Numbered from the stretch's first letter, positions 5,683-29,015 are shown. The stretch is 40,000 nucleotides of DNA from an uncultured Nitrososphaerota archaeon (GCA_963835875.1 CAWIGX010000003.1:498100-538099), one strand, 5' to 3'. Notes: a model not told the origin generated them from the letters alone. Made by a program: numbers and translations.

Positions 5683-5683
5683 T

Positions 5684-6980: not shown

Positions 6981-8306
6981 TCAAGTTGTTTTAGAAAACC
7001 ATTTTTTTGAATTATTAAATTCAATTTTACTGTTAAATTTACCAATTCTTTGTAATGGACGTGTCAAATGTCGATGTGCAGAAGAAACTGGCAAGTAAAA
7101 TTGCTTCTTAATTTGTCGTGGAATCTCTTGCTCAACTTTGGTCAATCTAGTATTTCCACACTTGGAGCATTGATAACCCTGATTTTTGCCCTTTGATTTC
7201 ATACGTTTTTTACATTTCGTACAAAAAGGATTCACTAAAATAATATATTTTTCGAGATCAAGTATTTCTAGAAATTCTACATTTAGAACTTGTTTATGAT
7301 TTTTTGAAGATTTTCTTATTCCTCCTCCAATTTTCACCAAATCTCCTTTCATCAGTTTCTCTGCAATAGTAGTAAGTTTAGTTGGTTTGTATACAGCACA
7401 TTTCACTGTAACTCCATTTTTATATACGGAAAAGAATACATGTCCGCCCAAAATTGTATGTGGTTTTTCTGTTATTTTTCCAACTAGATACCCTGAAGAA
7501 AATGGTTTTAGATTTTGAATATCAATCTCGTTTTGTAAGTGATCACTTGTACCTTGATTTGAGCGAAATACCATATAGCCACAAAATTTTTCCTTGGATT
7601 TTACAAGAGATGCTCCTCTGATCACAGCATCAGGATCTTCTCCACGCACACCAAAGAATACAGGATCAGGGCCATGGGGTGCAATTAAGATTCTATTCTT
7701 TGCCTCATCAAAGCTGTTAAACGTTCTAGGAAATGTGAGTTGTTGCATTTTTTCTACACTATCTTTAAAAATTTCTCTTTTTTTTCTAAGATTTACTTTG
7801 TCTCTATACGAGATTAATTCAAAAGTATGATCTCGAAAATCATACCCTATTGCACCTATTGCACCTATAAGTCCTTGACCATTACCAAGATGATAAGTTT
7901 CTAGTTTGTTATCTTGTACGAACTTCTTTGCTTCATTTCTGCTTACTAGACGATCTAGTGCCATTTTTCCAAATTTTGCGAAACTTTCTGGGATAATCTT
8001 ATGTTCATAAAAAACTAGCCCTGGATTTGCACCATCTTTTACAGCAGAATATTTTTTGATATATTTTACAATGTTCTTTTTTACCAATTGAGGCTTTCTG
8101 GTCTCAATCTTTAATGCAACAGCACCATTTCCCCTAGTTTTCCATGGCACATTTGGATTAAATCGAATCAGGTATGGATAATCAAGAAACTTTACTTTTT
8201 CTTTTTTTAGATATTCCACTATTTTATAGGCAAGAAAAGTAGTACACATCCCTTTTCTCGAGTCCGTATCATCAAAGCCAATATGAAGAATAGAGGTCTC
8301 TTTCAT
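6981..8306 (-). CDS. tiaS: tRNA(Ile2) 2-agmatinylcytidine synthetase
   Basis: N-terminal HIGFDDTDSRKGMCTT motif, central OB-like region and C-terminal zinc ribbon CTKCKK...CSKCG. 441 aa. Confidence 0.8.
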   Translation of the reverse strand: MKETSILHIGFDDTDSRKGMCTTFLAYKIVEYLKKEKVKFLDYPYLIRFNPNVPWKTRGNGAVALKIETRKPQLVKKNIVKYIKKYSAVKDGANPGLVFYEHKIIPESFAKFGKMALDRLVSRNEAKKFVQDNKLETYHLGNGQGLIGAIGAIGYDFRDHTFELISYRDKVNLRKKREIFKDSVEKMQQLTFPRTFNSFDEAKNRILIAPHGPDPVFFGVRGEDPDAVIRGASLVKSKEKFCGYMVFRSNQGTSDHLQNEIDIQNLKPFSSGYLVGKITEKPHTILGGHVFFSVYKNGVTVKCAVYKPTKLTTIAEKLMKGDLVKIGGGIRKSSKNHKQVLNVEFLEILDLEKYIILVNPFCTKCKKRMKSKGKNQGYQCSKCGNTRLTKVEQEIPRQIKKQFYLPVSSAHRHLTRPLQRIGKFNSKIEFNNSKKWFSKTT

Positions 8307-8533
8307 TCGATTACAGTCATAGTAAGAGTAGAACGTACATTTTTGAGTTGCCTTATGTTATTTGAGATGGTTCTTTTTAGCGTCTCATTATCTGGTGCTT
8401 CCACTTTTACCACCAAGTCATAGGCACCATACAGAACATAGACATATTTTACGCTCTCCATGTTTTTTAGCTGGTTCAAAAGATCAGTTTCTGCACCCAA
8501 TTCAGCATTTATCAGTACAAAAGCAATTGGCAT
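8303..8533 (-). CDS. stand-alone Lrp/AsnC-type ligand-binding (RAM) domain protein
   Basis: 76 aa with the beta-alpha-beta-beta-alpha-beta pattern AFVLINAE...VKYVYVLYGAYDLVVKVEA. 4-nt overlap with tiaS. Confidence 0.6.
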   Translation of the reverse strand: MPIAFVLINAELGAETDLLNQLKNMESVKYVYVLYGAYDLVVKVEAPDNETLKRTISNNIRQLKNVRSTLTMTVIE

Positions 8534-8616
8534 TCATTTGGTCTTCAAAATGTACAATATTAAATATTGTGGCAGTTTCGTTTGATTTAAATTAAAAAAA
8601 CAATTTCCGATAACGA

Positions 8617-9612
8617 TTGATAGTAATAGATGAGAAAAAGATTTTTGAAGAGATAGAAAAAAGAAAACCAGTCTCAGTTGCCTTAAATGGACCAGATGGG
8701 ATAATACCAAAAATTCAAGAAACAGCCTCAAGAATAATGGAGAAATTTGGAATTCCAGCGTATGTTATGGCAGATAGCTGTTTTGGTACGTGTGATCTTA
8801 ATTCAAATGGTGCAAAAGTACTTGGGGCAGAAATTCTATTTCACATAGGACATACTATCAATTCAATGAGTTTTGGCGATAGCATAGTTCTCATAGATGC
8901 TTTTGATGACATATCATTTGAAAATGTCACAAAAAAATGTGTGAATGAAATCAAAGAGAAAACAGTTTCACTTGTTACAGATAGTCAACATTTACATGAA
9001 ATTAACAAAGTAAAGAAAATACTTGAAGAAGGAGGTATTACCGTAAAAATTGGAAAGGGTAAAGGTCAACTAAATGATGGGCAGGTATTTGGTTGTGAAT
9101 TTTATCCTGTTACAGAAACCAAGAATATCGTAGAGGCAAATGTATTCTTGGGGCAAAGCAATTTTCATGCTGCTGGAATTGCACTATCTACTAATCTACC
9201 AACATACATACTTGATCCATACTTTAATGAGATTAGAGAAATTACAGAATTTGCAAAAACACTACAGAAAAAAGCTATACTTACCATCTACAAGGCTGCC
9301 GAGGCAGAAACATTTGGAATAATTGTGGGACTAAAAGAAGGTCAGTTTTCAAAAATGACCGCTCTTAAATTCAAAAAGGAGTTAGAAAGTATAGGAAAGA
9401 AAGTGCAACTATTTGCCATAACAGAAATTTCTGATGACAAATTACGCAATCTCAAAGGAATTGATGCCTTTATTCAGGTTGCATGTCCAAGAATATCAAC
9501 AGATAATCATTTTCACAAGCCAGTTTTGTCTACCCCTCAGGCAAATGCATTACTGAAAATATTAAAAAAAGAAGGCATAGAGGGATTCCTACAAATTCCT
9601 CACTGGCTATAA
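8617..9612 (+). CDS. dph2: diphthamide biosynthesis protein Dph2 (2-(3-amino-3-carboxypropyl)histidine synthase)
   Basis: Dph1/Dph2 family cysteine motifs (DSCFGTCD, QVACPRIS) and a length of ~330 aa. The start codon is uncertain (the ORF track uses TTG). Confidence 0.8.
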   Translation: MIVIDEKKIFEEIEKRKPVSVALNGPDGIIPKIQETASRIMEKFGIPAYVMADSCFGTCDLNSNGAKVLGAEILFHIGHTINSMSFGDSIVLIDAFDDISFENVTKKCVNEIKEKTVSLVTDSQHLHEINKVKKILEEGGITVKIGKGKGQLNDGQVFGCEFYPVTETKNIVEANVFLGQSNFHAAGIALSTNLPTYILDPYFNEIREITEFAKTLQKKAILTIYKAAEAETFGIIVGLKEGQFSKMTALKFKKELESIGKKVQLFAITEISDDKLRNLKGIDAFIQVACPRISTDNHFHKPVLSTPQANALLKILKKEGIEGFLQIPHWL

Positions 9613-9645
9613 ACAATTATAATCATCAAATTTCAAATTAAGGCA

Positions 9646-10200
9646 TTGTCTCAGAAACCAACCCTTCCAGGAGATAAAATTGCAATAATTGAAGAGTTTG
9701 AAACTGGCAAGAATACCTTTGATGATGGTCAATCTATAAGATCACTGGTTATAGGTACTTCTGAATTTGATAAAACTAATCGCATAGCTAAAATTAATGA
9801 AATGAGAAAACCTGCAGTTGCACAAGTGAATGATATGATTACGGGCAACATCTCAGCTCTAATGAACAATATGTTTGCGATAAACATATTGTACATAAAT
9901 GGAAAACCTACACATTCAGGTCTAGAATGTATTTGTCAGGCAAGAGGAGCAAAAAAAAGGATCCTTGTAAGAGTAGGAGACATCGTAGCTGCAAAAATAA
10001 TTAGTCATCTAAATGGAGTTGTACATGCAATAATTAGTGAACCTGAGTTAGGGGTTTTATTTACACAATGTAACAAGTGTGGTGCAAAAGTGGTATCAAT
10101 GGGTAGCAGTATAAAATGTGTAGATTGTGGATACATTGAAGAAAGAAAATTATCAAATATGTTTGGAAACAGCGATTTTATAAAATTCAACTCTAACTAA
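9646..10200 (+). CDS. csl4: exosome complex RNA-binding subunit Csl4
   Basis: N-terminal PGDKIAIIEEF, central S1/OB region, C-terminal zinc ribbon CNKCG...CVDCG. Confidence 0.75.
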   Translation: MSQKPTLPGDKIAIIEEFETGKNTFDDGQSIRSLVIGTSEFDKTNRIAKINEMRKPAVAQVNDMITGNISALMNNMFAINILYINGKPTHSGLECICQARGAKKRILVRVGDIVAAKIISHLNGVVHAIISEPELGVLFTQCNKCGAKVVSMGSSIKCVDCGYIEERKLSNMFGNSDFIKFNSN

Positions 10201-10204
10201 GAAT

Positions 10205-11014
10205 ATGTTAAAAGTGGCATTTCAAGGTGAACCAGGAGCTTATAGTCAAGCAGCCGCAGTAAGTTTTTTTAAAGAGCCAATTCAGACAATACCACATCCT
10301 ACATTTTATGAGGCATTAGATTCTACAGAAAATGGAAGATCAGATTACGCCATACTTCCTGTAGAAAATTCACTTGAAGGAAGCGTGGGTGAAAGTTATG
10401 ACTTGCTACTTACTACCAAACTCAGTGTGGTAGGTGAAACATATCATAGAATATCACATTGTTTAATAGGTTTACAAAATCTGGAAAAAATTGATACTGT
10501 GTATTCTCATCCACAGGCACTTGGTCAGTGTAGAAAATTCATTCAAAGTAATCATTTGAAGCCCATACCAACTTATGATACTGCAGGTAGCGTAAAAATT
10601 CTCTTGGAACTTAACAAGGACAACATTGCATGCATTGCCAGTAGAAAAGCTGCTGAAATCTATAATGTTCCAATAATAAAAGAAGGAATAGAGGATAATC
10701 CAAATAATTATACACGATTTCTTGTCTTGGCAAATAATAAAAAAGAAAAAACATCTAAAGACAAGACATCCATAATTTTTGCAATAAAACACATTCCTGG
10801 CGCACTATACAATATTCTTGAAAAATTTAATGCAAATAAAATTAATCTAACAAAAATCGAATCACGTCCTACAAAGAATACTCCTTGGGAATACAATTTT
10901 TACGTAGATTTTGAGGGTCATCAAGATGATAGTGCTATTTTAGACACTATAGAAAAAATACGATCAAATACAATATTTCTCAAGATACTTGGTTCATATC
11001 CAAGAGCAGGTTAA
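10205..11014 (+). CDS. pheA: prephenate dehydratase
   Basis: PDT domain (VAFQGEPGAYS, TRFLVL) followed by an ACT domain with ESRP. Confidence 0.9.
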   Translation: MLKVAFQGEPGAYSQAAAVSFFKEPIQTIPHPTFYEALDSTENGRSDYAILPVENSLEGSVGESYDLLLTTKLSVVGETYHRISHCLIGLQNLEKIDTVYSHPQALGQCRKFIQSNHLKPIPTYDTAGSVKILLELNKDNIACIASRKAAEIYNVPIIKEGIEDNPNNYTRFLVLANNKKEKTSKDKTSIIFAIKHIPGALYNILEKFNANKINLTKIESRPTKNTPWEYNFYVDFEGHQDDSAILDTIEKIRSNTIFLKILGSYPRAG

Positions 11015-11015
11015 T

Positions 11016-11480
11016 CTAGAATCCCTTGGGTCTTCTAATTGAAAACGCTGCACTAATTCCAATTATTAGAACTCCTGAAGATATAACAATAAGATGAGAT
11101 GTGAATATCAACGGATTTGTCACGGCTTGTAATTTTCCAGTTACATAGAGTACAGAGCCTCCAGTATTTGTTACATTTATGAAATGTTTTCCATTGAAAA
11201 GGCTATACCAATCAAAGGAAACGTTCTTTGTAAAATCACGATCAACTTGTAAACCATCTTTTGGGGTTTTTAGTGTAACATGAAATGAGGTTCCCGTAAC
11301 ATTAAGAAATTCATGATAATGTTGTAGTGCGTCAAATGAAAAAATATCACTTTTTCCCATATCTACAACGTCATTTACTTCATGTACATTACTCATTAGG
11401 TCTTGAATTAGAAAAAAGGTTCCAAGAATAATACCTACTGAACCTATTGCAATTCCGAGTACGCTTTTTTTTGAAAGCAT
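11016..11480 (-). CDS. hypothetical membrane-anchored protein
   Basis: Hydrophobic helices at both ends. No recognisable motif. Confidence 0.45.
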   Translation of the reverse strand: MLSKKSVLGIAIGSVGIILGTFFLIQDLMSNVHEVNDVVDMGKSDIFSFDALQHYHEFLNVTGTSFHVTLKTPKDGLQVDRDFTKNVSFDWYSLFNGKHFINVTNTGGSVLYVTGKLQAVTNPLIFTSHLIVISSGVLIIGISAAFSIRRPKGF

Positions 11481-11518
11481 TATGAGAAAAACTAGTTTGT
11501 AATTATATTTAAAGTAAA

Positions 11519-12959
11519 TTACATTAACTCTACATCATGTGGTTGACTTTCGGCATATCCAGCTGTTGACATTTTTATAAATTCAGCATTTTGTTGCATT
11601 TGAGGAATAGTATTTGCACCACAATAACTTAGGCCAGAACGTATTCCTCCTGTTAATTGTTTTATGATATCAGTTACACTTCCTTTGTATGGAACCATTG
11701 CCTCGACACCTTCTGCGACATAATCATTAAGGTCTTCTACCATAGAAGCATTACTGGTTTCCTTGCTCTTTCTTCCAAGAGCTGCATAAAATGATGCCAT
11801 ACCTCGATAAATCTTGTATCGTTTACCATTTTTCGTCATAAATGAACCAGGACTTTCATCTGTTCCTCCTAACAGGCTTCCAACCATTACAGTAGATGCT
11901 CCGGCAGCAAGTGCTTTTGTAGCATCACCGGATGTCCTTACGCCACCATCAGATATTATTGGAATATCATATTTTTTGCCAACTTGTGCACAATCTAGTA
12001 CAGTGTAAGTCTGAGGTACCCCAGATCCAGTGATTACTCTAGTAATGCAGATGGAACCAGAGCCTACTCCTACCTTTACTGCATCTACACCAGCTTTGAT
12101 GAGATTCCTCCGTACCTTGAGCAGTAGCTACATTTCCTGCAATTAATTCACAATTTGGAAAAGCCTTCTTTATCAATCGAACCGTGTTAATTGCGTTCTC
12201 ACTATGTCCATGTGCAATATCCACCACTATGACATCAGCACCTGCATCTAGCAATGCTTCTGTTCTTTCCATAAAATCTCCCTTTACACCGACTGCAGCT
12301 CCTACCAATGGTCTTCCCTTCCTATCTTTTGATGCATGTGGATAATTATCAGCATTAATGATATCTTTACTAGTGATCAATCCTTTGACATGCCCACGTT
12401 CGTCTAAAAGCGGTAATTTTTCAATGCAGTTTTTTCGAAGTATTTCTTTTGCTTCAACGATGGATATTCCAGATTTTGCTGTAATAACATCGCTTGTCAT
12501 GACCTCGTCGACTTTTTTATTTTCATCTTTTGGCTCAAGCATGACAATATCTCTTCTTGTCAATATTCCAACAAGTTGACCTTGATTATCTGTCACAAGC
12601 AATCCTGAAGCTCCTTTTTCACGCATAGAGTCTATAGCTTCATGTACTGTTTGTTTGGGATCTATAGTATATGGATTTTCTATTATAATGCTGCCTGAAC
12701 GTTTTGTTTTGAGTACCTCGTTTACCTGTTCTGAGATAGTAAGAAATCTATGTATAATTCCAATTCCACCCTCCCTTGCTATTGCCACTGCCATGGCAGA
12801 TTCAGTTACAGTATCCATGTTTGCACTGATTACAGGTATGTTAAGCGAAATATTTTTTGAAAGTTTTGTTTGCAAATTTGTTTGAGACCTAGTAACTATA
12901 TCTGATCGTTTAGGAACAAGGAGTACATCATCAAATGTTAGTCCTTCCCTTATTTCCAA
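11519..12959 (-). pseudogene. guaB: IMP dehydrogenase interrupted by one surplus nucleotide (as sequenced)
   Basis: The N-terminal ORF (12039..12959) contains the IMPDH barrel and CBS pair, then goes out of frame after ...AGNVATAQGTEE. Skipping base 12104 restores LIKAGVDAVKVGVGSGSICITRVITGSGVPQ...IISDGGVRTSGDATKALAAGASTVMVGSLLGGTDESPG. This runs straight into the ORF 11519..11887. The span is 1441 nt = 3n+1. Confidence 0.9.
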
Positions 12960-15239: not shown

Positions 15240-16764
15240 ATGGATAAAATAATAGTATTAGATTTTGGTTCGCAGTATAGTCATCTTATTTGTAGAAGAA
15301 TTAGAGAATTTTCAGTATATTCTGAACTTGTTCCATACAACATATCACCCGAAGAACTAAGAAAGATGAATCCAAAAGGGATTGTATTTAGTGGGGGACC
15401 TGCAAGTGTATACAATAAGGATTCACCACAACCATCAAATGAAATATTTGAGATTGGACTCCCAGTACTTGGAATATGTTATGGTCATCAATTAATTGTT
15501 AACAAATTTGGTGGCAAGGTTAAGCGTTCTCACAAGGAGTATGGTTCATCATTACTTAGCATAGATAATGATTCAGATCTACTTTCTGGGATGGGTCAAT
15601 CAACAAGAGCTTGGATGAGCCATGGGGATGCTGCTGAAAGTCTTCCAGAAGGATTTGAGGTGATAGGACATACTGAAAATTCTTTTGCAGCGGCAATTGC
15701 AAATAAACAAAAGATGGTATATGGTATTCAATTTCATCCAGAAGTAGTACATACTGAAAATGGAGTTCAAGTACTGAAGAATTTTGTTTTAAACATATGC
15801 AAAGCAAAACAAGATTGGACTTTGGAGAATTTTATAGAAACAACAGTTACAGAAATTTCAAAGATTAATGGTGATGTATTATGTGGGATAAGTGGAGGTA
15901 TTGATTCTACAGTAGCAGCATTATTAATTCAAAAAGCTATAGGAAATAGACTCAAGTGTGTTTTTGTAGATAATGGTCTTTTGCGACTAGATGAAGAAGT
16001 AGAAGTAGAAAACATGTTTGAAAATAATTTTGGTATGAATTTTACAGTAATAAACGCAAAACAGCGATTTCTTTCTAGATTCAAAGGAGTAACTGATCCT
16101 GAACAGAAACGAATGATTGTTGGAGAAGAATTTGTCAAGGTATTTACAGAGTTTGCTGAAAAGAATGGTCCTTTCAAATGGTTAGCTCAAGGTACACTAT
16201 ATCCAGATGTCATAGAAAGTGGAATTTCCAAGGGCCCAGCAGCAGTAATTAAGACTCACCATAATGTAGGAGGATTACCACCATGGTTAAACTTGCAAGT
16301 ATTGGAGCCTCTAAGATTCCTTTACAAGGACGAGGTAAGAAAAGTTGGCAAAATTTTAGGAGTATCAGATAAACTTCTTAATCGTCATCCATTTCCAGGA
16401 CCTGGTCTTGCTGTAAGAGTGATGGGTGAATTGACTCCAGAAAAATTACAGATCTGTAAACATGCAAGTAAAATTGTAGAAGATGAACTTGCGTCTTCAG
16501 CATGGTATGATAAAGTTTGGCAAGCTTATGCAGCAGTAGGAGATGATAGAGCGGTAGGAGTAGTTGGAGATGAAAGAAAATATGGTCATGTTGTTCTTGT
16601 TAGAGTAGTAGATTCTATTGATGCAATGACTGCAGATTGGACAAGATTGCCTTCAGATATACTTGAAAGAATTAGTAATAGAATTACAAACGAGGTTGAA
16701 GATGTGGCATGGGTAAGCTTATGTAATTTCAAGTAAACCACCTGCTACTATAGAACCTCAATAA
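15240..16764 (+). CDS. guaA: GMP synthase (glutamine-hydrolysing); true C-terminus recovered after a 1-nt frameshift at ~16716
   Basis: GATase motifs (ICYGHQ, HPE) and the ATP-PPase motif SGGIDS. The track ORF ends ...EDVAWVSLCNFK* at 16736. Skipping base 16716 gives ...WVAYVISSKPPATIEPQ* (stop at 16762-16764), which matches the conserved GuaA tail Y-x-I-x-x-KPPATIE. The span is 1525 nt = 3n+1. Confidence 0.9.
16749..16763. repeat. left target-site duplication TATAGAACCTCAATA (contains the guaA stop codon)
   Basis: An identical 15-mer sits at 29001..29015, immediately outside the two inverted termini. Exact identity extends to 23 bp (16749..16771 = 29001..29023). Confidence 0.8.
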
Positions 16765-16816
16765 AAATAGAACACCCCTAGTTTACTCGTGAAAATCTGA
16801 CGCTTGTCGTAAAAGT
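16764..16816 (+). repeat. left terminal inverted repeat
   Basis: AAAATAGAACACCCCTAGTTTACTCGTGAAAATCTGACGCTTGTCGTAAAAGT. The first 15 nt are identical to the reverse complement of the right end. Confidence 0.8.
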
Positions 16817-16844: not shown

Positions 16845-17690
16845 ATGACAGATCAAAAACCACCTAATTATAAAACTGTGGGGGAAATTCTCGAGGGATA
16901 TCTCAATTATGTGTCAGAATTTATTGAAAAAATAGGGGATGAGAATCCAATGCCCTTTTACAATGAAACTGTAGCAAAAATGAGAATAATTCAAAAAAAT
17001 ATTATTCAAATAAATTCACCTTTTCTAAAAGATACTGATCTTCACGATCTCTATGACGTAGTATTATCAATACTGATTAATTGGAATGGTGATATTACAA
17101 AAAACGTTCGTAACTATGTAGACGCTCACATAGAAATTGCAAGAAATTCGTTTGCAAAAAAAGACAACTATAATCCAATGATAGTAATAATTAATGAAAG
17201 AGATCGTTTTCTTAATGCTAATACTGTATTTGAACAAGTTTTGAGAAAGATCAATAGTAAAATGATAGAAGAAGTAGAACTGTATGCACTCTTTTTTGCA
17301 TTAATTTCTTCTCAGGAAGTAATGGAAAAAACTCTTTATGCTGAAATAAGCGGAGGAATTAAAAAATTCAATATTGAAAATTATGATCTAATTGAAATGT
17401 TTTCAGTCACTGGAAAATGGAAAGATAGTGACGGATTTTTTAAAACAGATTCCAAAGTAATTAGAAATTCACTATCTCATTTCGATTTTGAACTTGTACG
17501 AGATCAAGGTTTGATAATATTTCATCCAAAATCTCAAGATGCTGAGATTAAGAAAACTTTTACCTTGCGTGAATTTTTAAAATATGTTTCAAATAGTAGG
17601 TTTCTTTTACAGACATTCTATGTGGCATTATGTGTACTAACTTCTTTTACATTATTACGCAAATACTATGTCATGCATGATAGCCCATGA
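16845..17690 (+). CDS. hypothetical protein with Rx4H (HEPN-like) motif
   Basis: Mostly alpha-helical-looking 281-aa protein containing VIRNSLSHFDFE (R-N-x3-H). Stop overlaps the next start (ATGA). Confidence 0.35.
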   Translation: MTDQKPPNYKTVGEILEGYLNYVSEFIEKIGDENPMPFYNETVAKMRIIQKNIIQINSPFLKDTDLHDLYDVVLSILINWNGDITKNVRNYVDAHIEIARNSFAKKDNYNPMIVIINERDRFLNANTVFEQVLRKINSKMIEEVELYALFFALISSQEVMEKTLYAEISGGIKKFNIENYDLIEMFSVTGKWKDSDGFFKTDSKVIRNSLSHFDFELVRDQGLIIFHPKSQDAEIKKTFTLREFLKYVSNSRFLLQTFYVALCVLTSFTLLRKYYVMHDSP

Positions 17691-18112
17691 TGGATCCTTT
17701 TGATGAACTGATGAAACTATGGGACAAGACAAGTGATGAGCATATTACATGGCAAAAAACAAGACATGTACATTCCATGGATGAAATGTTTGAAACATTA
17801 AAGAAATTACTAGCTAAACAAGAGGAGATTGAAAAATATGCAGAGATCATCAAGCCCTTACCTGCTGTAGATAAAGCCCCCGCTCTTGCGGCTAAATACA
17901 AAAATCTCTATCAGATACAATCATTTCTTTCAGACGTTTTGTTGGAATTGTTTTCACGAGTAATGTCAGAGATGAAAAAGAAGATACCTGCAAATGATTC
18001 TCTTGATCCTAGGATACAATTCATGATAACAGAGCAGGTTCGAATCGAAGTTGCCAAGAAATTACAAAAACCAAAGGTAAAACATGACACTAAAAGGAAG
18101 AAAAAAATCTGA
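17687..18112 (+). CDS. hypothetical protein with Lys-rich C-terminal tail
   Basis: 141 aa, translationally coupled to the upstream ORF. The tail KPKVKHDTKRKKKI resembles the tail of ORF 18156..18719. The stop codon lies inside the internal TIR-motif copy. Confidence 0.45.
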   Translation: MMDPFDELMKLWDKTSDEHITWQKTRHVHSMDEMFETLKKLLAKQEEIEKYAEIIKPLPAVDKAPALAAKYKNLYQIQSFLSDVLLELFSRVMSEMKKKIPANDSLDPRIQFMITEQVRIEVAKKLQKPKVKHDTKRKKKI

Positions 18113-18124
18113 CGCTTGTCGTAA
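18104..18124 (+). repeat. internal third copy of the subterminal TIR motif AAAATCTGACGCTTGTCGTAA
   Basis: Exact 21-nt match to 16792..16812 in direct orientation (24/25 if extended). The right TIR carries the inverted version (TGACGCTTCTCGTAA). Confidence 0.8.
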
Positions 18125-18155
18125 GAGTTAAGACTCAACAAAGATCATAAAATTT

Positions 18156-18719
18156 GTGAAAAAAGAATTCAATGATCTAAAAGAACACCTTCAATTTACA
18201 TTTGATTTTGATCAAGATACTAGAGGATCTTATCTATACCAAACTGCAGAAATTGAATCCTTGGTAGAACAAATTATTGCCTATCACTACTGTAGTGAAG
18301 ATTTGAAAAAGATGAATTCTTTTTTATCCCTAGTTTTAAGCCAGTTAAATTTTAATTCTAAAATTAAAATTTTCTTGAAGATATTAGAAAAATACATTGA
18401 GTTCAAAGATGAGTATCCCATCATAAAAACAAGCCTTCCAAATATTCAATCATTTAGAAATAAACTGGCTCATTCACGACTAGATACATCCTACGAATTC
18501 ATACAAAGACGTCAGCGTAAAATAAGATTGATTTCACAACGAGATGAGAAGATCCAACTTTTAGAAATAACAGAGAAACTTGTAAAACAAAAAAATAAAG
18601 AAATTGCTACGCTACACATGAAACTGAATAAAATTGCTAATAAAATCAGCAAAGGAGAAGTAGGAATTTTAAAACCAGTTGTAAAGCTTGACTCTAAACG
18701 GAAGAAAAAATCACTATAA
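18156..18719 (+). CDS. hypothetical protein with Rx4H (HEPN/Abi-like) motif
   Basis: FRNKLAHSRLD (R-N-x3-H, as in AbiD/F-type HEPN proteins) in a helical 187-aa protein. C-terminal tail is KPVVKLDSKRKKKSL. Confidence 0.4.
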   Translation: MKKEFNDLKEHLQFTFDFDQDTRGSYLYQTAEIESLVEQIIAYHYCSEDLKKMNSFLSLVLSQLNFNSKIKIFLKILEKYIEFKDEYPIIKTSLPNIQSFRNKLAHSRLDTSYEFIQRRQRKIRLISQRDEKIQLLEITEKLVKQKNKEIATLHMKLNKIANKISKGEVGILKPVVKLDSKRKKKSL

Positions 18720-18787
18720 TGTAAGATTATGCTAGTTCATTTTTAATATCAAATTTTTTATTAATTCCAGTTTCTCTTATAGAAGGT

Positions 18788-19441
18788 TCAATATAGATTG
18801 GTAAAATTGGTGAGTTTATCAATGGCAAATTTACGATCAAAGTTTTTTATCAGGTCTTTTGATGCAGATTTTTCAAAATAAAAACCAAACACTTGCTTTC
18901 CAGCATTTTTTACAGCTTTCACCAAATCCACAAAATCAGCATCGCCTGCAATCAATACAGCCCAATCATAATGATTTTCATATGCCTTACTCAACATGTC
19001 TATTGCGATTAAGGAATCCACCCCTTTTTGTCTAAATTCCCAATTATCCTTATTTTCCGCCCCTCCTTTTGTAGATAGCACTAATCTTCCTAACTTGATT
19101 TCAAAAAAATCTGTCTTCTCTATTTCTTTAATATATTGATTTTGTGTGGTAGATGTTTTTTCAATTTTTTCTTTAGCAATTTCTGATACGTCTGGTGTGA
19201 GTTGCTCCACATTCTGATCTGATGCTATGGCATCATAGTAATAGGTTCGTATGAGATGAGGCATTATATGATCAGTAGAAAGTTCGTGCATTATAGCTCC
19301 GATTAGTTTTTGATATCCTGTAAATTCTTTAGAAAAAATATCGCGAATATTTTTTCGTAGATAATATCCATCTATAAAACATATTACAGACATGAATTTT
19401 TTTGGAATTAACTGTGAACTGACTTGGTTCATACTACCCAT
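18788..19441 (-). CDS. NYN/LabA-like (PIN-related) putative ribonuclease
   Basis: CFIDGYY..., KGVDSLIAIDM and VLIAGDADFVDLVKAVKNAGKQV follow the NYN acidic-residue pattern. Confidence 0.6.
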   Translation of the reverse strand: MGSMNQVSSQLIPKKFMSVICFIDGYYLRKNIRDIFSKEFTGYQKLIGAIMHELSTDHIMPHLIRTYYYDAIASDQNVEQLTPDVSEIAKEKIEKTSTTQNQYIKEIEKTDFFEIKLGRLVLSTKGGAENKDNWEFRQKGVDSLIAIDMLSKAYENHYDWAVLIAGDADFVDLVKAVKNAGKQVFGFYFEKSASKDLIKNFDRKFAIDKLTNFTNLY

Positions 19442-19496
19442 GAATATTTTAAACTAATTCTTGATTTAAGGTTGTTGACAAATTTGCCATAAATCT

Positions 19497-20402
19497 TTAA
19501 GATCTATATTTCTCTAATGATGCATCACATATTTGTATTACTTTATTCAGAATAGTTGAGATTGTAGTAAGCTCTATCTGCAAAACGGATGATGGTTCAT
19601 AAAACTGTCTTTGTAATAGTCTCTTGGATTCTTCATTATCAGAATGATTGAATCCTTCTATTTGTGTATTGAATTTTGTAAGAATATGTAACATTTTTAC
19701 AACATCTTCTTGATCATTACCTAACAATTTCTTTTCCCTTAGAAATGACTCGTTTGAAAGTATTGCATCCCTCATAAAGTAAAGATCTATTGGCGTAGCT
19801 TTGATAACTGTTGAAGGGTGGATGGATTTAGCAAGATTAAGTGTTTGTAGGAATTCGTCACGAAGTAAGATGGCGGAAGAACGAAGCTTTTCAAGGTTTT
19901 TGATTTGTTCTACTGAATTACTAAATAGGTTTAAAATTGCAGTTCTTCCCACTCGTTGGCTTGAGCTATGAAGTCTTACGAAACATTGATCTGTGCTTGT
20001 TATGAAATAGGGTTTCTCTGAAGTTTTACTTTCTATTTTGATTACTGTATAGAATTTACTTTCATCATCTTCGTAAATGTGACGTATTGTTATAGTTGGA
20101 GTAGGTTCCACAAGGAACCTAAAATTGTTAATTTTGTTTCCAAGAGGATCTTCTTCGCCTTTTGTAAAACCTATTTTTTTAAATCCGATTAATGTTTTAT
20201 CGTCTTCGCCTTTTCTCTGACCAATTCCCAATACTATGAAGCCACCTTTGGCATTTGCCATTGCACATATGTCCTCATGAAGTTCACTCGGTTTATCCTT
20301 GAAATCAAATATCTCTGATTCTATGGATGGTATATTCATCATTTTATCAAGCAATTTGATATTGAATTCTTCTAATTTTTCAGGAATAGTAACTAATTCC
20401 AC
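19497..20402 (-). CDS. Schlafen/AlbA_2-domain protein
   Basis: ESEIFDFKDKPSELHEDICAMANAKGGFIVLGI matches the AlbA_2 (divergent AAA-4) E-x-x-x-E/D-F-K ... A-x-A-N-x-x-GG-x-I-x-x-G pattern. It lies 55 bp upstream of the NYN gene on the same strand. Confidence 0.55.
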   Translation of the reverse strand: MELVTIPEKLEEFNIKLLDKMMNIPSIESEIFDFKDKPSELHEDICAMANAKGGFIVLGIGQRKGEDDKTLIGFKKIGFTKGEEDPLGNKINNFRFLVEPTPTITIRHIYEDDESKFYTVIKIESKTSEKPYFITSTDQCFVRLHSSSQRVGRTAILNLFSNSVEQIKNLEKLRSSAILLRDEFLQTLNLAKSIHPSTVIKATPIDLYFMRDAILSNESFLREKKLLGNDQEDVVKMLHILTKFNTQIEGFNHSDNEESKRLLQRQFYEPSSVLQIELTTISTILNKVIQICDASLEKYRS

Positions 20403-20528: not shown

Positions 20529-21044
20529 ATGAATTATCGTGATAGTGCCATACAGTGGTCTAAAACTTTTCCATTCACAGTGTTGTGTGCCATAATGTCA
20601 ATTGTATTGACAATCAATCCATCTATTGTTAATGTTGAATTTCTTAAAACCTATTTGTTTAATCAATACGCAGGATGGAATATGTGGATAATAGGATTAA
20701 TCCCATTTGGATTTGGATTGGTAACGCTTGTAAAACTTGTTTTAAAACAATTCAAGAAGAAAAAACAATATACAAACGATGGAAAAATCTCATATAGATT
20801 TATTTTTGATGTAATACATGTTCCAATGTTTTATGCTATTGACCTTACTGCCATTTTTGGCATGATTATTGGATTATTGATCATATGTGTTCCCGAAGCT
20901 GCAAAACCAGAATATCATCAGATCCACATTTTTGAAGTATTTTTTAATGCTTTTTGCGTTCCTTATGTTTCAATAATCTATTATTATGGTAAAACATTAT
21001 GGGAAGAATCAGCCCCACACTCAATCATAAATCATTTAAAATAA
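20529..21044 (+). CDS. hypothetical integral membrane protein (about 4 TM helices)
   Basis: Hydrophobic segments throughout. No motif recognised. Confidence 0.5.
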   Translation: MNYRDSAIQWSKTFPFTVLCAIMSIVLTINPSIVNVEFLKTYLFNQYAGWNMWIIGLIPFGFGLVTLVKLVLKQFKKKKQYTNDGKISYRFIFDVIHVPMFYAIDLTAIFGMIIGLLIICVPEAAKPEYHQIHIFEVFFNAFCVPYVSIIYYYGKTLWEESAPHSIINHLK

Positions 21045-22266: not shown

Positions 22267-22644
22267 ATGAGAAGACTTGATAAACTGTTCAAGGAACTTG
22301 GCATAGTTAAAAAAGAAATAGAGTTAACACAGACATTCAGACCGACAAAACAAACTAGAGAATTTCTAAGACGTTTGTTTGCTGAATATAGTCATATTGT
22401 AAACAGTATCAAAAAATTGCAGTTATCTTCAGAATCAAAACAAGAAGAACGAAAACAAAGAGGGCATCGAGCAAATCTAAATCGTAGTACAAAAATGAGT
22501 CGGGCTTGGAGATTCTTTAAAGCAATACAAGAAAATTATCTTCCTGATACATCTACAAAAGAAATTCGATCACAATTTTCTAAATTCAAAAAGGGATTGG
22601 AGACTGACATTTCTAATATAATTTGGAGGAATCCTAGTCCATGA
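22267..22644 (+). CDS. small basic protein translationally coupled to polB (candidate terminal protein or accessory factor)
   Basis: 125 aa, rich in K/R/S/T. Its stop overlaps the polB ATG (ATGA at 22641-22644). Confidence 0.45.
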   Translation: MRRLDKLFKELGIVKKEIELTQTFRPTKQTREFLRRLFAEYSHIVNSIKKLQLSSESKQEERKQRGHRANLNRSTKMSRAWRFFKAIQENYLPDTSTKEIRSQFSKFKKGLETDISNIIWRNPSP

Positions 22645-24518
22645 CTTTACAAATACATCTTCCAAAATCAAAACCTAAAGATCTTACATACATCAAAACA
22701 AGAGAACAATATAGAAATGTAAACGGATCATCGCGTCGTAAAGCAGTAGGAATTGATACCGAAACACAAGACGGAGATATCTTTCTAATTTGTGATTCTG
22801 ATGGAAATTTTATAGACTATCCAAACATTACATTTGATAATATAGCAGAGTTTCTTTTCAAGCATGAAGGTTCTTGGCTGTTTTGTTACAATTTACAATA
22901 TGATGCTGAATGTATAATGAAATTATTACCTTCAGAGGTATTTGAGCCATATAGAAAGAAAAAGCAATTAGACTTTGAATACAAAAATTATTCAATTACA
23001 TACATTCCAAAAAAGCAACTCAAAATACAAAAAGGCAATCATACTGTTTCTCTTTACGATATTGCACAATACTATGACAATGTGCCACTAAACAAGGCAT
23101 ATTCTGATCACATCAAAAAACCTCTTGATCAAGACTATCTTGAAACTAAGAAAATGCGTAAATCTTTTAGTGTTAGACACTATCTTAGGCACAAAAAGCA
23201 GATTCGGAAATACTGTATTACAGATTGCATTCTAACAAAGGAATTAGCAGAGCACTGGTTAGATACATTCTTTGAGGCATATGGTTTCTATTCTGCAAAT
23301 TGGATTAGTTCTGGATATCTAGCAGAAAAGGTACTGATCCACGATAGGATACAAATTCCATTCTTTGGGGATACGTTATATGATATACAGAAACTAGCAT
23401 GGGAATCGTTTTACGGTGGACGATTTGAGCTGATACAGCGTGGATTTATCGGTGAATGTTATCTGTATGATATCAATTCTGCATATCCGTATGCTTTTAC
23501 ATTTCTTCCAGATATTACAGATGGAAAATGGATCCAATCTAAGAAAATAAATCCAAATTCTGCATTAGGGTTTTTTCATATTCGTGCACAAGTAGATTAT
23601 TCTGTCAAGATTGCACCATTTCCATTTAGAACTAAAAATAACAGGATAATCTATCCAACTGGAGAGTTTGAAACTTTTGTTACATTGGAAGAACTAAAGG
23701 CAGTAACTGGAGATCCAAAAATAAAATACAAGATAATTGATTCATACCAGTTCATTCCAAATGTAAATTGCAAATATCCATTCAAAGAATTCATTATAAA
23801 ACAATATAATAAAAGAATGGAACTGAAAAAACAAAATAATCCGCTAGAGCGCGCAATCAAAATAATACTGAATTCAATGTATGGTAAAACTGCACAACGT
23901 GTGAATAATAAAATGGGTAACTTGTTCAATCCCGTAATTGCGTCATATATTACAGGATTTGCAAGGGCACAACTATACAAATTTGTAAAAGATCATCAGT
24001 TGGAAAAACATGTAGTTGCTTTTGCTACTGATTCTATTGCTTGTAGAAAAAAGATTGTTGGGCTGGATAGTAGAAAACTAGGTGAGATGAAACTAGACAA
24101 GGAAGCAAGTGACGCATATTTTCTATCAAATGGATTTTATCTCATAAATGGAATATGGAAGAATCGCGGGATCGGGTACGATACCGAGAGAAAGGTCGAG
24201 ATCGAGCACTTGACTACCAAAATAGATCCTAAAGGTAACCTGTACATCACAGTTAAAACTACGAAAACTATGCACATCAAAAGCGGAATCATCTACAATA
24301 AACTCGACAAAATCGGCAAAATTGAGGAATATGAAAAGAAAATTGGTCTCAATTCAGACAGAAAACGCCATTGGTTTTCTGACTTGAAATCCTTGAAAGA
24401 AAAGACATTTTGCGATTCCGTACCCGTTCCAATTGATTTGGTGGATGATATTATTTCAAAGAACGAGATTGAATGGGTTACAGATGATGATGTGTATGAT
24501 CCTGAAAGTGAACTATGA
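22641..24518 (+). CDS. polB: family B DNA polymerase, protein-primed (pPolB) type
   Basis: Exo I GIDTETQDG, Exo II NLQYDAECI, Exo III YCITDCILT. Pol A LYDINSAYPYA, Pol B KIILNSMYGKTAQ, Pol C VAFATDSIA. Compact at 625 aa. Confidence 0.85.
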   Translation: MTLQIHLPKSKPKDLTYIKTREQYRNVNGSSRRKAVGIDTETQDGDIFLICDSDGNFIDYPNITFDNIAEFLFKHEGSWLFCYNLQYDAECIMKLLPSEVFEPYRKKKQLDFEYKNYSITYIPKKQLKIQKGNHTVSLYDIAQYYDNVPLNKAYSDHIKKPLDQDYLETKKMRKSFSVRHYLRHKKQIRKYCITDCILTKELAEHWLDTFFEAYGFYSANWISSGYLAEKVLIHDRIQIPFFGDTLYDIQKLAWESFYGGRFELIQRGFIGECYLYDINSAYPYAFTFLPDITDGKWIQSKKINPNSALGFFHIRAQVDYSVKIAPFPFRTKNNRIIYPTGEFETFVTLEELKAVTGDPKIKYKIIDSYQFIPNVNCKYPFKEFIIKQYNKRMELKKQNNPLERAIKIILNSMYGKTAQRVNNKMGNLFNPVIASYITGFARAQLYKFVKDHQLEKHVVAFATDSIACRKKIVGLDSRKLGEMKLDKEASDAYFLSNGFYLINGIWKNRGIGYDTERKVEIEHLTTKIDPKGNLYITVKTTKTMHIKSGIIYNKLDKIGKIEEYEKKIGLNSDRKRHWFSDLKSLKEKTFCDSVPVPIDLVDDIISKNEIEWVTDDDVYDPESEL

Positions 24519-25420
24519 TTTTTCATCAACTCTACAAAGATTTCATACTTTTCATGATTTTTTCAAAAGTTTCATTCTTTCAACTATTTTTCATGACTTT
24601 TCATTAACACTTCAAAGCTTTCGCTATTTCCTTGATTTTCAATGACTTTTCATCAACTCTACAAAGATCCCCACTCTTACCATGATTTTCCTTGATTTTC
24701 AATCATTTTTCGTTAGATCTTCAAACCTTCCATTCTTTCAACGATTTTCATGACTTTTCATCAGGTCTTCAAAGCTCTCAATCTTTCAATGATTTTTCAT
24801 GACTTTTCATCAATTTTTCAAAGTTTTCACTCTTCCAACGATTTTCAACGACTTTTCATGATTCTTTTCAAAGATCCTCCATTACTATGATTTCCTTGTG
24901 ATTTTTAATCACTTTTCATCATATCTTCAAAGCTCTCAATCTTTCAATGATTTTTAATCACTTTTCATCATATCTTCAAAGCTCTCAATCTTTCAATGAT
25001 TTTTAATCACTTTTCATCAGGTCTTCAAAGCTCTCAATCTTTCAACGATTTTTCATGACTTTTCATCAGGTCTTCAAAGCTTATCGTCATTTCCTTGGTT
25101 TTTAGTAATTCTTCAGTAGATCTTCAAGACTCTCATTCTTACCTTAATTTTCCTTAATTTCCTTCAGGATTATCCTAAATTCCCTCATGATTTTCCTTGA
25201 TTTTTAGTGATCTTCTATCAGGTCTTCAAAGTTATCATTCTTTCAATGATTTCTTATGACTTTTCATCAGCTCTTCAAACCTTCCATTCTTTCAATGATT
25301 TTTCATCAGCTCTTCAAACCTTCCATTCTTTCAATGATTTTTCATAACTTTTCATCAGCTCTTCAAACCTTCCATTCTTTCAATGATTTTTCATGACTTT
25401 TCATCAGCTCTTCAATGATT
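24514..25420. repeat. array of ~18 degenerate 49-bp tandem repeats (non-coding, pyrimidine-rich top strand)
   Basis: The consensus unit is approximately TTTTCATCAGGTCTTCAAAGCTCTCAATCTTTCAATGATTTTTCATGAC. 24900..24948 and 24949..24997 are identical. Two sub-families (..GGTCTTCAAAGCTCTCAAT.. and ..GCTCTTCAAACCTTCCATT..) cluster locally. The array starts on the polB stop codon. Stops occur in all frames. Confidence 0.9.
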
Positions 25421-25493
25421 ACATGAAACTACAAAAGTTAGAGAAGAAAAATATTAATCCGAAATGGATTTGTAAGTTTTTAAAATTCATAAA

Positions 25494-25553
25494 TAGAGAA
25501 TTCGATTGTATAGTAGAGAATTCGATTGTATAGTAGAGAATTCGATCGTGGAG
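25494..25553. repeat. 3 x 20-bp tandem repeat TAGAGAATTCGATTGTATAG
   Basis: Two exact copies and one diverged copy. The unit length is not a multiple of 3, so it is non-coding. Confidence 0.85.
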
Positions 25554-25572
25554 TAGAAACAAGGGGTATTGG

Positions 25573-25635
25573 TGATGACTGATGATGTGTTGATGATGAC
25601 TGATGATGTGTTGATGATGACTGATGATGTGTTGA
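25573..25635. repeat. 3 x 21-bp tandem repeat TGATGACTGATGATGTGTTGA
   Basis: Three exact copies. One top-strand frame reads (MTDDVLM)x3. Confidence 0.85.
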
Positions 25636-25767
25636 TGAGGTATAGACGATCTGTTAGGATCTTTTAGACCAATCAGAAAAGTACCTATATGTAGTAACTG
25701 CGGTCTCAAAGAAAAAAAGATCGCCGAAAAATGTTCGGTATGCAAGTCGCCTTACATACTTGCATAA
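25575..25767 (+). pseudogene. possible small repeat-plus-zinc-ribbon ORF, out of frame as sequenced
   Basis: ATG at 25575 gives (MTDDVLM)x3 and then stops at 25665. The +1 frame continues GIDDLLGSFRPIRKVPICSNCGLKEKKIAEKCSVCKSPYILA* (CxxC...CxxC) but has no start codon of its own. The span is 193 nt = 3n+1. Confidence 0.25.
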
Positions 25768-27310: not shown

Positions 27311-28426
27311 TTATTCTTTTTGTAAACAAAAATTTTTCAATTCAATACACTTCATCTTCATTATAGTGATCTCTTCCATCATCTGGTAACCGTCTTTTCT
27401 TCTAATTCCAGTTCTTGCCTTGTAATCTCTTTTCCTATCAAATATTGTAGAAAGCAAATCAATGTATTTTTTCTTCAATTCATCAGATAAAACCACAATT
27501 CCATCCCTTGAAAAAACATAATCCTTCTTTCTTATCTGATCCTGAATCTCAAATACACTTCTATCTATCAGATGCCTAAACGGTTCTATCATGTCATACA
27601 CTAGAGCCAGATGGGAATCATGATTTCTGTGATAAAATCCTACAAAACAATCCAGACCTAATACATTGAGTTGCTTTGCAATCTCTGAATATAATATAGA
27701 AAATCCATAATTTAGAAGACCATTGATTACATCTGAAGCATCTTTTGGCCTGAAATGCCTAACATTGTTTCTTGAATTAAATTTCAATTCAGGGTTTACT
27801 AGCAAGGATAAAGTTGGATAATACAATTTGGCAATATCACTTTCTACCTTCATTATTTCTCGTAGTTCGTGAGCAGAGGATAAGTTTTGGAAGCGTTGCT
27901 TGATCAGTAAAATTACATTTCTGATCTTTTCTTTTGCTTCAGGTTTTACCTTGAGAGAATAATTCATAGCAGTTTGGTTATTGCAGACCTGCCAAGCTTT
28001 ATTGTATGAATTATAGACTTGTTTTGGTTCTGCAATAAATTCCTCAAACAATTTGATCTGTGATTCAATCTTTTGAAAGACTAACCACTTTCTAAGAAAT
28101 TCTAACTTTTTTGGATCCCTAAAGGCATCATATTGATTTTGCCTAATTAGAGGCTCATGACCGCCTATCTTGTGAAAATAACTAAATAACTTGCCACGTT
28201 TATCAAGCATTACAACATTGATGTTGGATTCTGCAAGACGTTCTAATGATTCTGTTGAAACATAACCCTTCCCTTGAATCACTACTTTATCAAATGGGCA
28301 TGCCGAAGATGGTAGTTCTAAAATTTCCCTTTTACCATTGAAGGGATCAATTCCTTGAGAAAAGACCAGTCTTGTATTTTGTACCTTTATTGAAAGACCG
28401 TAACCGCGTAAGAATAATGATCTCAT
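27311..28426 (-). CDS. cas1: Cas1 homologue (casposase)
   Basis: N-terminal beta domain LFLRGYGLSIKVQNTRLVF. Catalytic-region pattern VESDIAKLYY (Glu), NGLLNYGFSILY, GFYHRNHDSHLALVYDMIEPFRHLIDR (His, Asp/Glu). 371 aa. No cas2, cas4 or CRISPR array anywhere in the window. Confidence 0.85.
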   Translation of the reverse strand: MRSLFLRGYGLSIKVQNTRLVFSQGIDPFNGKREILELPSSACPFDKVVIQGKGYVSTESLERLAESNINVVMLDKRGKLFSYFHKIGGHEPLIRQNQYDAFRDPKKLEFLRKWLVFQKIESQIKLFEEFIAEPKQVYNSYNKAWQVCNNQTAMNYSLKVKPEAKEKIRNVILLIKQRFQNLSSAHELREIMKVESDIAKLYYPTLSLLVNPELKFNSRNNVRHFRPKDASDVINGLLNYGFSILYSEIAKQLNVLGLDCFVGFYHRNHDSHLALVYDMIEPFRHLIDRSVFEIQDQIRKKDYVFSRDGIVVLSDELKKKYIDLLSTIFDRKRDYKARTGIRRKDGYQMMEEITIMKMKCIELKNFCLQKE

Positions 28427-28428
28427 GA

Positions 28429-28920
28429 CTACGGATTTTTACACTGATAGGCGCAGATTATTGTTATGAACCAAGTAATTGTTACAAGAAAAGCGAGTAA
28501 CATTCCAAACATTATGCCTAGAGTTATCATAGTCTCTTTGTTCATCTTTTTTTCTTCTTCTTGGTCTGGTGTACCAATTTTAATGAGAGCGAAAATGAAC
28601 CAACCGATAGGAACAAGAAAACACACCACTGAAATTAGATAGTAACTCACTTTTGCTAATAACGGAATCGAGGCTACCGTTGGGGCAACCAAGTACAGCA
28701 ATAATTCCAGTGATTTTACAACCTTTGGATTATGTTTTCTTAACCTCTTCCAGTAAAGAAAAGTAATTCCAGCTCCAGACGCACCGGAGATAGCAATCAA
28801 TTGTTGCAAATCATAACTAATAACAATTGTAGGCTTATGGAATAGAATAAGATAGATCAAAAATGCTGCAACTACTAGATCTAGTCCTGCAAGAATTATT
28901 TTCTTGATCTTTAGATCCAC
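28429..28920 (-). CDS. integral membrane protein (about 5 TM) immediately upstream of cas1
   Basis: Its stop is 2 nt from the cas1 ATG. It starts about 30 nt inside the right TIR. Confidence 0.5.
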   Translation of the reverse strand: MDLKIKKIILAGLDLVVAAFLIYLILFHKPTIVISYDLQQLIAISGASGAGITFLYWKRLRKHNPKVVKSLELLLYLVAPTVASIPLLAKVSYYLISVVCFLVPIGWFIFALIKIGTPDQEEEKKMNKETMITLGIMFGMLLAFLVTITWFITIICAYQCKNP

Positions 28921-28947: not shown

Positions 28948-29000
28948 ACCTTTACGAGAAGCGTCATGTTTTCAAGCGTAAAGTGGGGGTGTTCTATTTT
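28948..29000 (-). repeat. right terminal inverted repeat
   Basis: The reverse complement reads AAAATAGAACACCCCCACTTTACGCTTGAAAACATGACGCTTCTCGTAAAGGT. Confidence 0.8.
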
Positions 29001-29015
29001 TATAGAACCTCAATA
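29001..29015. repeat. right target-site duplication TATAGAACCTCAATA
   Basis: Identical to 16749..16763. It is followed by AAAATAGA, which also equals the element terminus. Confidence 0.8.

Follow-up and report, generated by a model that had tools for sequence, protein, structure and literature searches.

Here we describe a 40,000-nt stretch of DNA from an uncultured Nitrososphaerota archaeon (GCA_963835875.1 CAWIGX010000003.1:498100-538099; hereafter the window, meaning the whole stretch) that contains a family-1 casposon, an element that has terminal inverted repeats (TIRs) at its ends and is flanked by a target-site duplication (TSD), and we focus on the block of genes at 16845-20402, next to its left TIR. 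Three open reading frames (ORFs), A, B and C, lie on the plus strand of this block, and the genes for a NYN/LabA-like protein and an AlbA_2-domain protein of Schlafen type lie on the opposite strand, the NYN start following the AlbA_2 stop by 55 nt (Table 1). On balance, the block is probably variable cargo, in which four self-contained RNase-type genes (A, C, NYN and AlbA_2) were acquired separately and stand with B beside the TIR, without forming an integrated system. Its role would most likely be an abortive-infection-type or exclusion defence that benefits both the element and its host; all functions named for the block are predictions from sequence. A preliminary description of this DNA had placed four ORFs here, inside a casposon, two with an RNxLxH motif and two with AlbA_2 and NYN domains, the latter pair 55 nt apart; an ORF scan recovers these four and adds ORF B, the motifs, domains and gap are all confirmed at their coordinates, and the location within a casposon is borne out by TIRs, a 13-bp TSD and Cas1. 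The motifs themselves are unevenly informative. Bare R-x4-6-H is frequent, with 30 copies among the 49 ORFs that run from stop to stop over 100 aa or more in the window; RN.L.H is confined in the window to ORFs A and C, and residue shuffles give an expectation of 0.05. A Pfam scan returned nothing for ORFs A, B and C.

Table 1. Features of the casposon and its cargo block, and loci (L numbers) carrying relatives of the cargo genes; positions are counted within the sequence named in the first column.
Sequence	Feature	Position	Strand	Description
Window	Left 13-bp TSD copy	16750..16762	.	ATAGAACCTCAAT; read directly in the sequence
Window	Left TIR	16763..16816	+	Outer core AAAAATAGAACACCCC, inner motif GACGCTTGTCGTAAA
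Window	ORF A	16845..17690	+	281 aa; RNSLSH at residues 207-212; first gene inside TIR
Window	ORF B	17687..18112	+	141 aa; start overlaps A stop by 4 nt (ATGA)
Window	Internal TIR relic	18103..18127	+	AAAATCTGACGCTTGTCGTAAGAG; inner TIR half, 96% match to 16792-16816
Window	ORF C	18156..18719	+	187 aa; GTG start; RNKLAH at residues 101-106
Window	NYN/LabA-like protein	18788..19441	-	217 aa; contains IAGDADFVDLVKAVKNAGKQV
Window	AlbA_2 protein (putative prokaryotic Schlafen)	19497..20402	-	301 aa; contains FDFKDKP and AMANAKGGFIVLGI
Window	Protein-primed-type family B DNA polymerase (PolB)	22641..24518	+	Assigned on motifs read in the translation rather than on a profile
Window	Cas1-family casposase	27311..28426	-	phmmer against PDB: Cas1 chains 6opm 1.1e-25, 4n06 5e-25
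Window	Right TIR	28948..29001	-	Inverted core ends at 29001
Window	Right 13-bp TSD copy	29002..29014	.	ATAGAACCTCAAT; identical to left copy, perfect direct repeat
L049/L050	1.1-kb element	9903-11030		At guaA 3' end; perfect 13-bp TSDs ACTGAGGCTCTAT
L051/L052	ef-2 end with TIR	95-2496 (L051)		ef-2 end (...YVDSE, stop), TIR directly after, 68% A homologue, convergent 470-aa SIR2_2 protein
L136	Nearest C homologue (43%)			Starts 68 nt inside TIR, faces 455-aa DUF4145 protein
L056	48% NYN homologue			Between pPolB C-terminus and TIR-like core (pPolB-NYN-ORF-TIR-like core)
L006/L137	78% AlbA_2 homologue			Ends beside TIR abutting ef-2 stop
L007	43% AlbA_2 homologue			Second gene from TIR
L114	NYN homologue (37%) with AlbA_2 gene	4476-6588		AlbA_2 383 aa (Pfam 2.3e-20), divergent, 365 nt apart
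L053	Four-gene cluster	8212-11592		250 aa (two RxxxxH, weak RiboL-PSP HEPN match), 131 aa, 206 aa, 283-aa A-like

The casposon is recognised by its ends and its core genes. Positions 16749-16816 and 28948-29015 form an inverted repeat of 68 nt with 81% complementarity, and between the TIRs, with the TSD on both flanks, lie a Cas1 gene and a PolB-type ORF whose translation contains the Exo/Pol motifs DTETQD, YNLQYD, YDINSAYPY, KIILNSMYGK and FATDS. This polymerase gave zero matches against PDB sequences, and is 48% identical to the PolB fragment beside the NYN homologue in L056. The element is inserted just past the stop codon of guaA (16734-16736), the left TSD copy lying 13 nt downstream, and the TSD has the 13-bp length that was determined for the Ca. 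N. koreensis family-1 casposase (PMC8464041). Known thaumarchaeal casposons target mostly ef-2, and one uses the 3' region of a purine-biosynthesis gene (PMC6563490); we did not find guaA among the reported casposon insertion sites. The window is AT-rich (GC ~0.33) and its flanking genes are close to those of Nitrosopumilaceae-type metagenome-assembled genomes (MAGs), the guaA product being 88.6% identical to its counterpart in GCA_037024435.1. With the known family-1 thaumarchaeal casposons (NitEve-C1 with HEPN; NitNF5-C1 and NitDev-C1 with OLD, NERD and HNH; Krupovic et al. 2014, 2019; PMC4046053, PMC6563490), the element shares the core of Cas1 and protein-primed PolB (pPolB), TIRs, a TSD of 13 bp, a protein-coding gene's 3' end as insertion site, and element-specific nuclease genes; it differs in its target, which is guaA and not ef-2, in a composite left end with an internal TIR relic, and in a cargo that forms an array of RNase-type genes (Schlafen, NYN, HEPN-like).

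SLFN_AlbA_2 (PF04326) matches residues 29-150 of the AlbA_2 protein with 52.9 bits (cut-off 25.3; E 6.7e-14), and the family consensus scores 60.1 bits against the same model, bearing out the domain named in the preliminary description. A homologue search yielded ~33 full-length relatives of ~300 aa, all from thaumarchaeal MAGs or metagenomes, and the gene is under purifying selection (dN/dS 0.12-0.17); a scan of viral contigs with the family returned nothing useful. The protein contains an Ex4DxK site, E28-SEIF-D33-F-K35 (IESEIFDFK), of which E28 and D33 do not vary among 27 aligned homologues and K35 is kept in at least 90% of them. The family profile weakly matches the CRISPR-associated Schlafen CbCash (PDB 9ylu) and mammalian SLFN8 at E ~1e-3, as well as SLFN12, 14 and 11. 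Behind this N-terminal AlbA_2/Schlafen nuclease domain (~28-150) follows a helical C-terminal domain of ~150 aa, which gave no significant family match in the profile search and in which D206, N245 and N252 are invariant within the family. The protein is classed as a prokaryotic Schlafen (pSlfn). The Ex4(E/D)xK site is catalytic, and needed for both tRNA cleavage and phage defence by pSlfns (Perez Taboada et al., Nat Microbiol 2026, PMC13056530); because the AlbA_2 domain of the window protein carries this catalytic site of Schlafen tRNases, the domain most likely acts as effector within a self-contained protein, and not as a sensor. The preliminary description had cast the AlbA_2 protein as the sensor of a pair, an assignment that is probably reversed, since in the 2026 papers the domain is a tRNase effector fused to a sensor. 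Putative sensor domains are found fused to 97% of pSlfns, and 17% of these partners have no annotation (PMC13056530). By analogy with the tested bacterial Schlafens, the C-terminal domain would sense a cue from the invader and release tRNA cleavage by the nuclease domain. The likeness to single-protein pSlfn systems (PMC13056530) and to Cash (PMC13462974; PDB 9ylu) lies in the N-terminal PF04326 domain with a catalytic Ex4(E/D)xK site, in the fusion to an unannotated domain, as in those 17% of pSlfns, and in a mobile-element location beside other defence-type genes. The window protein differs from both in belonging to an archaeal, Nitrosopumilaceae-type family of ~300 aa that is casposon-borne and has no CRISPR association, and in a C-terminal domain without detectable relative, which is not an Ig-like, DUF262, HisKinase or Csx15 sensor.

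Pfam NYN (PF01936) matches the NYN protein with 63.4 bits (cut-off 24.2; E 4.4e-17), and 30 aligned relatives share D24, D142, D148 and D167 without exception, and at least 90% of them D169, so that the proposed NYN identity with its acidic residues is upheld. The family profile matches the LabA-like structure PDB 2qip (E 3.3e-7), and the PADLOC model HEC-09 matches the protein at E 1.1e-14 over profile positions 40-174 of 203, which is the NYN part; the N-terminal HTH-like part of HEC-09 is unmatched, and no Hma genes were found in the window. We regard the NYN protein as a canonical LabA-like NYN that has all the metal-binding aspartates, and as a candidate Mg-dependent RNase of the HEC-09/MARF1-like kind. 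It resembles HEC-09 and the LabA-like NYN proteins (PF01936; 2qip) in its NYN domain with conserved aspartates and its single-gene arrangement, and differs from HEC-09 in that the match is limited to the NYN part and the gene lies outside any Hma system.

For ORF C, an HMMER search of 1.84 billion representatives found 247 relatives at E<=1e-3, mostly ~175 aa long, and the ORF is under purifying selection in a dN/dS analysis. Across 70 homologues R23, K69, R101, N102 and H106 are each at least 90% conserved, the motif of C itself reading FRNKLAHS, and the weak, sub-cut-off Pfam matches of these 70 sequences fall almost only in HEPN families: HEPN_Cthe2314 in 15 of the 70, Abi_2 in 8, RiboL-PSP in 5, Apea in 4, MAE_28990 in 3 and Swt1 in 2, with single matches to DUF4145, HepT, AbiU2 and pEK499_p136. 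The family consensus points the same way, again below cut-off (Abi_2 1e-3, Cthe_2314 ~1e-3, DUF4145 6e-3), and PADLOC matches among the members, likewise sub-cut-off, include CARF-HEPN, Csx1/Csm6, AbiD (2.5e-6), Cas13b and RT-HEPN; no Pfam HEPN model reaches its cut-off for the family. An AlphaFold2 model of ORF C (pLDDT 92) is helical: helix 87-105 has the motif at its end, and a beta-hairpin and then a long helix come after it. Compared with small stand-alone HEPN proteins (Abi_2/AbiD, Cthe_2314-like, DUF4145, RiboL-PSP), C shares an R-N-x3-H that ends a core helix and a mainly helical fold; it differs in staying sub-cut-off for all Pfam HEPN models, in the beta-hairpin after the motif, and in having no Foldseek match. 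With these similarities in hand, we think it likely that ORF C belongs to the HEPN superfamily, and it would then presumably be a metal-independent RNase.

ORF A is a different matter. Searches of 5.8 billion proteins found only 5 homologues; the six A-family sequences, of which one is at 24-27% identity, all have R207 and H212, the motif of A itself reading IRNSLSH, and the gene is under purifying selection (dN/dS 0.14-0.20). Sequence searches of Pfam, PADLOC, NCBIfam, PHROGs and PDB gave no match, those of Pfam and PADLOC covering the family members and consensus too, and a scan of viral contigs with ORF A returned nothing useful. The AlphaFold2 model built on the six-sequence alignment reaches a pLDDT of 59.7 and Foldseek returned only noise with it, which makes the fold comparison uninformative rather than negative. 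Aligned with the C family by hhalign, A scores a probability of 2.4%; the motifs and the hairpin and helix that follow them align, not significantly, and what A has in common with the small HEPN families is the motif and the order helix, beta-hairpin, helix. With profile searches empty, a poor model and no significant hhalign match to C, we dropped the assignment of A to HEPN, and describe it, from its sequence, as a rare, predictedly helical protein with a conserved RNxLxH and no assigned biochemical class. Of the two HEPN-like ORFs in the preliminary description, C is thus retained for its conserved RNxxxH and repeated weak HEPN matches, and A, which has no HEPN profile signal, is not. ORF B has no family match in profile scans, whether to an MNT-type or another known antitoxin domain, and no B homologue stands next to the A homologues in L049, L051 and L053; B as a partner of A was rejected on the latter ground. 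As a side observation, an 83% direct repeat of 40 nt (18067-18106 and 18671-18710) codes for the basic tails at the C-termini of B (KPKVKHDTKRKKKI) and C (KPVVKLDSKRKKKSL); an 'LDS' is retained at this tail position by close homologues of C, which makes the copy in B look secondary. The common tail of B and C is a 40-nt DNA duplication beside the TIR relic, and gives no evidence for a common function.

The boundary between B and C may also record how the left end was assembled. The internal TIR relic lies at the B stop codon, the last codons of B running into it, and just upstream of C; it aligns with the junction between TIR and C homologue in L136. An internal half TIR suggests the fusion of two TIR-bounded units, and on the simplest reading the left end would be a composite of a [TIR-A-B] unit and a casposon, now [half TIR-C...], in which C had been the first gene. 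Other casposons have been described to insert in tandem at one and the same site (PMC6563490).

Each of the four genes has homologues in further family-1 casposons, in varying combinations, and for three of the four these adjoin this TIR type. The left-end TIR type can be aligned across 6 other loci, and the window-type core is present in 5 independent loci outside the window; by chance, a 16-nt TIR core with <=2 mismatches would be expected ~0.85 times in the 1.04 Mb examined, and most real copies additionally carry the inner motif GACGCTTnTCGTAAAG. For A, one case is the small element of L049/L050, which lies in the same gene order as in the window (adenine deaminase, thermosome, PfkB, [island], guaA) and consists of a TIR (9911-9960), a 63% A homologue (10001-10843), a Cas1 remnant (the first 47 codons, 55% identity) and a second TIR (10978-11027). 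It is a non-autonomous deletion derivative that keeps only A intact, and its A protein is found in identical copy on 7 contigs. In L053, a distant A relative (27%, 283 aa) closes a tight cluster of four genes, within an island that also carries a type I restriction-modification system, GmrSD, a two-HEPN-like protein, a TIR-domain protein (TIR_2) and Kiwa; this cluster may represent a multi-gene system, not yet characterised, with the A family as a member. For C, NYN and AlbA_2, the nearest casposon-borne homologues are those of L136, L056 and L137 (Table 1), and the 66% AlbA_2 homologue has OLD-type and SMC/AAA ATPase genes as neighbours. A few details of these loci stand apart. Taking the A-proximal TIR as reference, the L049/L050 element is oriented opposite to that of the window, and a TnpB-like (Cas12f1-like_TNB) cluster at 630-1799, between adenine deaminase and thermosome, is absent at the same position of the window. 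In L137 (4081-7766) an 871-aa protein with HD-CE and HATPase_c_3 (GHKL) is divergent from the 78% Schlafen homologue; L007 (135-5104) additionally has genes for an N-terminal fragment resembling a terminase large subunit, for a 495-aa protein of NERD/Mrr-like type and for a protein of 460 aa with RSRFVH, and this element may be chimeric with a provirus. The L053 cluster is followed by a convergent 234-aa protein with RNALAH.

The AlbA_2 and NYN genes had been joined in the preliminary description into a two-gene system of AlbA_2 sensor and NYN effector, with a suggestion to survey their co-occurrence. This survey was run from both sides, and the pair is not conserved. None of ~10 AlbA_2-family loci with flanks (L001-L010) has an NYN gene, and among 80 metagenomic NYN loci, 31 of them at least 4 kb long, an AlbA_2 gene is adjacent in one (L114), 4.4 kb away in another (L094), and absent from the remaining 78. 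The nearest homologues of the two genes sit apart, in different casposons (L137 and L056), and their identities differ as well (78% and 66% for AlbA_2, 43-48% for the nearest non-self NYN), which indicates that the genes have different histories. The two-gene system was rejected after these neighbourhood surveys. Of the small defence or addiction island that had been proposed, the cargo island within a casposon stands, and the AlbA_2-NYN system within it is unsupported.

Several points weigh against a block of separately acquired defence genes. The survey of relatives is based on a few dozen short metagenomic contigs, and the TIR-like core of L056 is without the inner GACGC...TCGTAAAG motif. 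ORF A shows no detectable tie to HEPN other than its motif, and for ORF C Foldseek searches with the confident model found neither a HEPN structure nor any match to a solved structure. HEC-09, as a single-gene candidate, gave no protection against any phage tested (Payne et al., bioRxiv 10.1101/2024.01.29.577857), and many NYN relatives lie beside housekeeping genes on long thaumarchaeal contigs (L047, L048), neighbours that make a non-defence role for the NYN gene possible. Finally, the AlbA_2 and NYN genes are co-oriented across their 55-nt gap, with no oligo-T run between them, and their co-transcription is possible.

It is conceivable, if unlikely, that A and the TIR belong together in a more specific way: A would be a new RNase-like or regulator family tied to this TIR type and acting for the element, and the TIR-proximal slots would be exchange sites. 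Under such a joint account A, which always comes first inside the TIR, is probably expressed from it and is the sole gene kept in the 1.1-kb derivative, would exclude competing casposons or viruses or else serve in addiction, and RNase-type immunity genes would be shuffled among family-1 casposons through tandem insertion and TIR-TIR recombination. Less probable still is that one or more of the RNase-type genes serve stabilisation, A with B, or C, being toxin-antitoxin-like units that penalise loss of the casposon and are not antiviral. The ATGA overlap of A and B is a layout typical of coupled pairs, HEPN toxins are a frequent part of toxin-antitoxin systems, and the constant first place of A, together with its persistence under purifying selection as the only intact gene of the L049/L050 derivative (on those 7 contigs), would fit such a unit; against it, A homologues without B in L049, L051 and L053 show that B is no obligatory antidote, profile scans found no known antitoxin domain in B, and members of the C family are mostly stand-alone proteins of ~175 aa.

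We consider it improbable that the genes instead have a part in the RNA metabolism or regulation of the element or its host, such as the processing of transcripts, unrelated to conflict. The single NYN/LabA-like genes often found beside housekeeping genes and the absence of defence by HEC-09, both noted above, speak for such a role, as does the finding that 30% of pSlfn genes lie away from any defence genes (PMC13056530); it is countered by a cargo that varies between related casposons, the core genes of family 1 being others, and by the enrichment of the homologues in defence-type neighbourhoods. Least credible is a dedicated two-gene system, expressed as one operon, in which AlbA_2 senses infection and activates the downstream NYN nuclease: the shared strand, short gap and missing oligo-T terminator favour it, as do the AlbA_2 genes of L114 and L094, against which stand the near-complete lack of either gene at loci of the other, the occurrence of each gene's nearest homologue without its partner, the catalytic Ex4DxK retained by the AlbA_2 domain, which is the effector in tested systems, and a TATA-like TTAAAT (read by eye) ~26 nt upstream of the NYN start, with which the NYN gene may have its own promoter.

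The reading we prefer, of variable and separately acquired RNase-type cargo, bears on what casposons carry. Casposons are regarded as ancestral to CRISPR adaptation, and their accessory genes have barely been described; to our knowledge, Schlafen, NYN and HEPN-like cargo had not been listed for them, one HEPN excepted, and we know of almost no experimentally known defence systems in ammonia-oxidising archaea. The recurrence of Schlafen, NYN and HEPN-like relatives at other thaumarchaeal casposon ends suggests that casposons spread RNA-targeting immune genes among these archaea. Family-1 casposons carry element-specific nucleases, including OLD, NERD, HNH, Cas4 and one HEPN, and since such casposon-borne nucleases were reported earlier the idea of defence-type cargo is not new (PMC6563490). 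What is new is that relatives of all four cargo genes occur in casposons of the same family; the kinds of gene and the kind of element were already known, and current views are not overturned. Three outcomes seem suited to follow-up: an archaeal Schlafen family with a putative sensor domain of no known relative, a compact HEPN-like C family, not covered by any Pfam model, with at least 247 members, and a natural mini-casposon (TIR-A-TIR) that could be used for studying mobilisation in trans.

Some further features of the casposon lie outside the cargo block. At the right end, counting in the TIR-like AAAAATAGA that follows the right TSD lengthens the direct repeat to 22 bp, which recalls the 'putative 22-bp TSD' of N. 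koreensis. The PolB stop is followed by a 49-nt tandem repeat array of ~16 copies (24514-25440), and short arrays with 20- and 21-nt units follow at 25494-25557 and 25566-25638; no long ORF was assigned in the array region (24514-25638), and a minus-strand candidate ORF (25419..25745) there carries an HQHIISH repeat. These arrays might represent iterons or an origin, or else repetitive minus-strand coding sequence. Two multi-pass membrane proteins without family match are also encoded inside the casposon, at 20529-21044 (171 aa) and 28429-28920 (163 aa), one of the genes being divergent from the Schlafen gene and the other lying between Cas1 and the right TIR; this last slot is the one apparently held by gene A in the ancestor of the L049 element.

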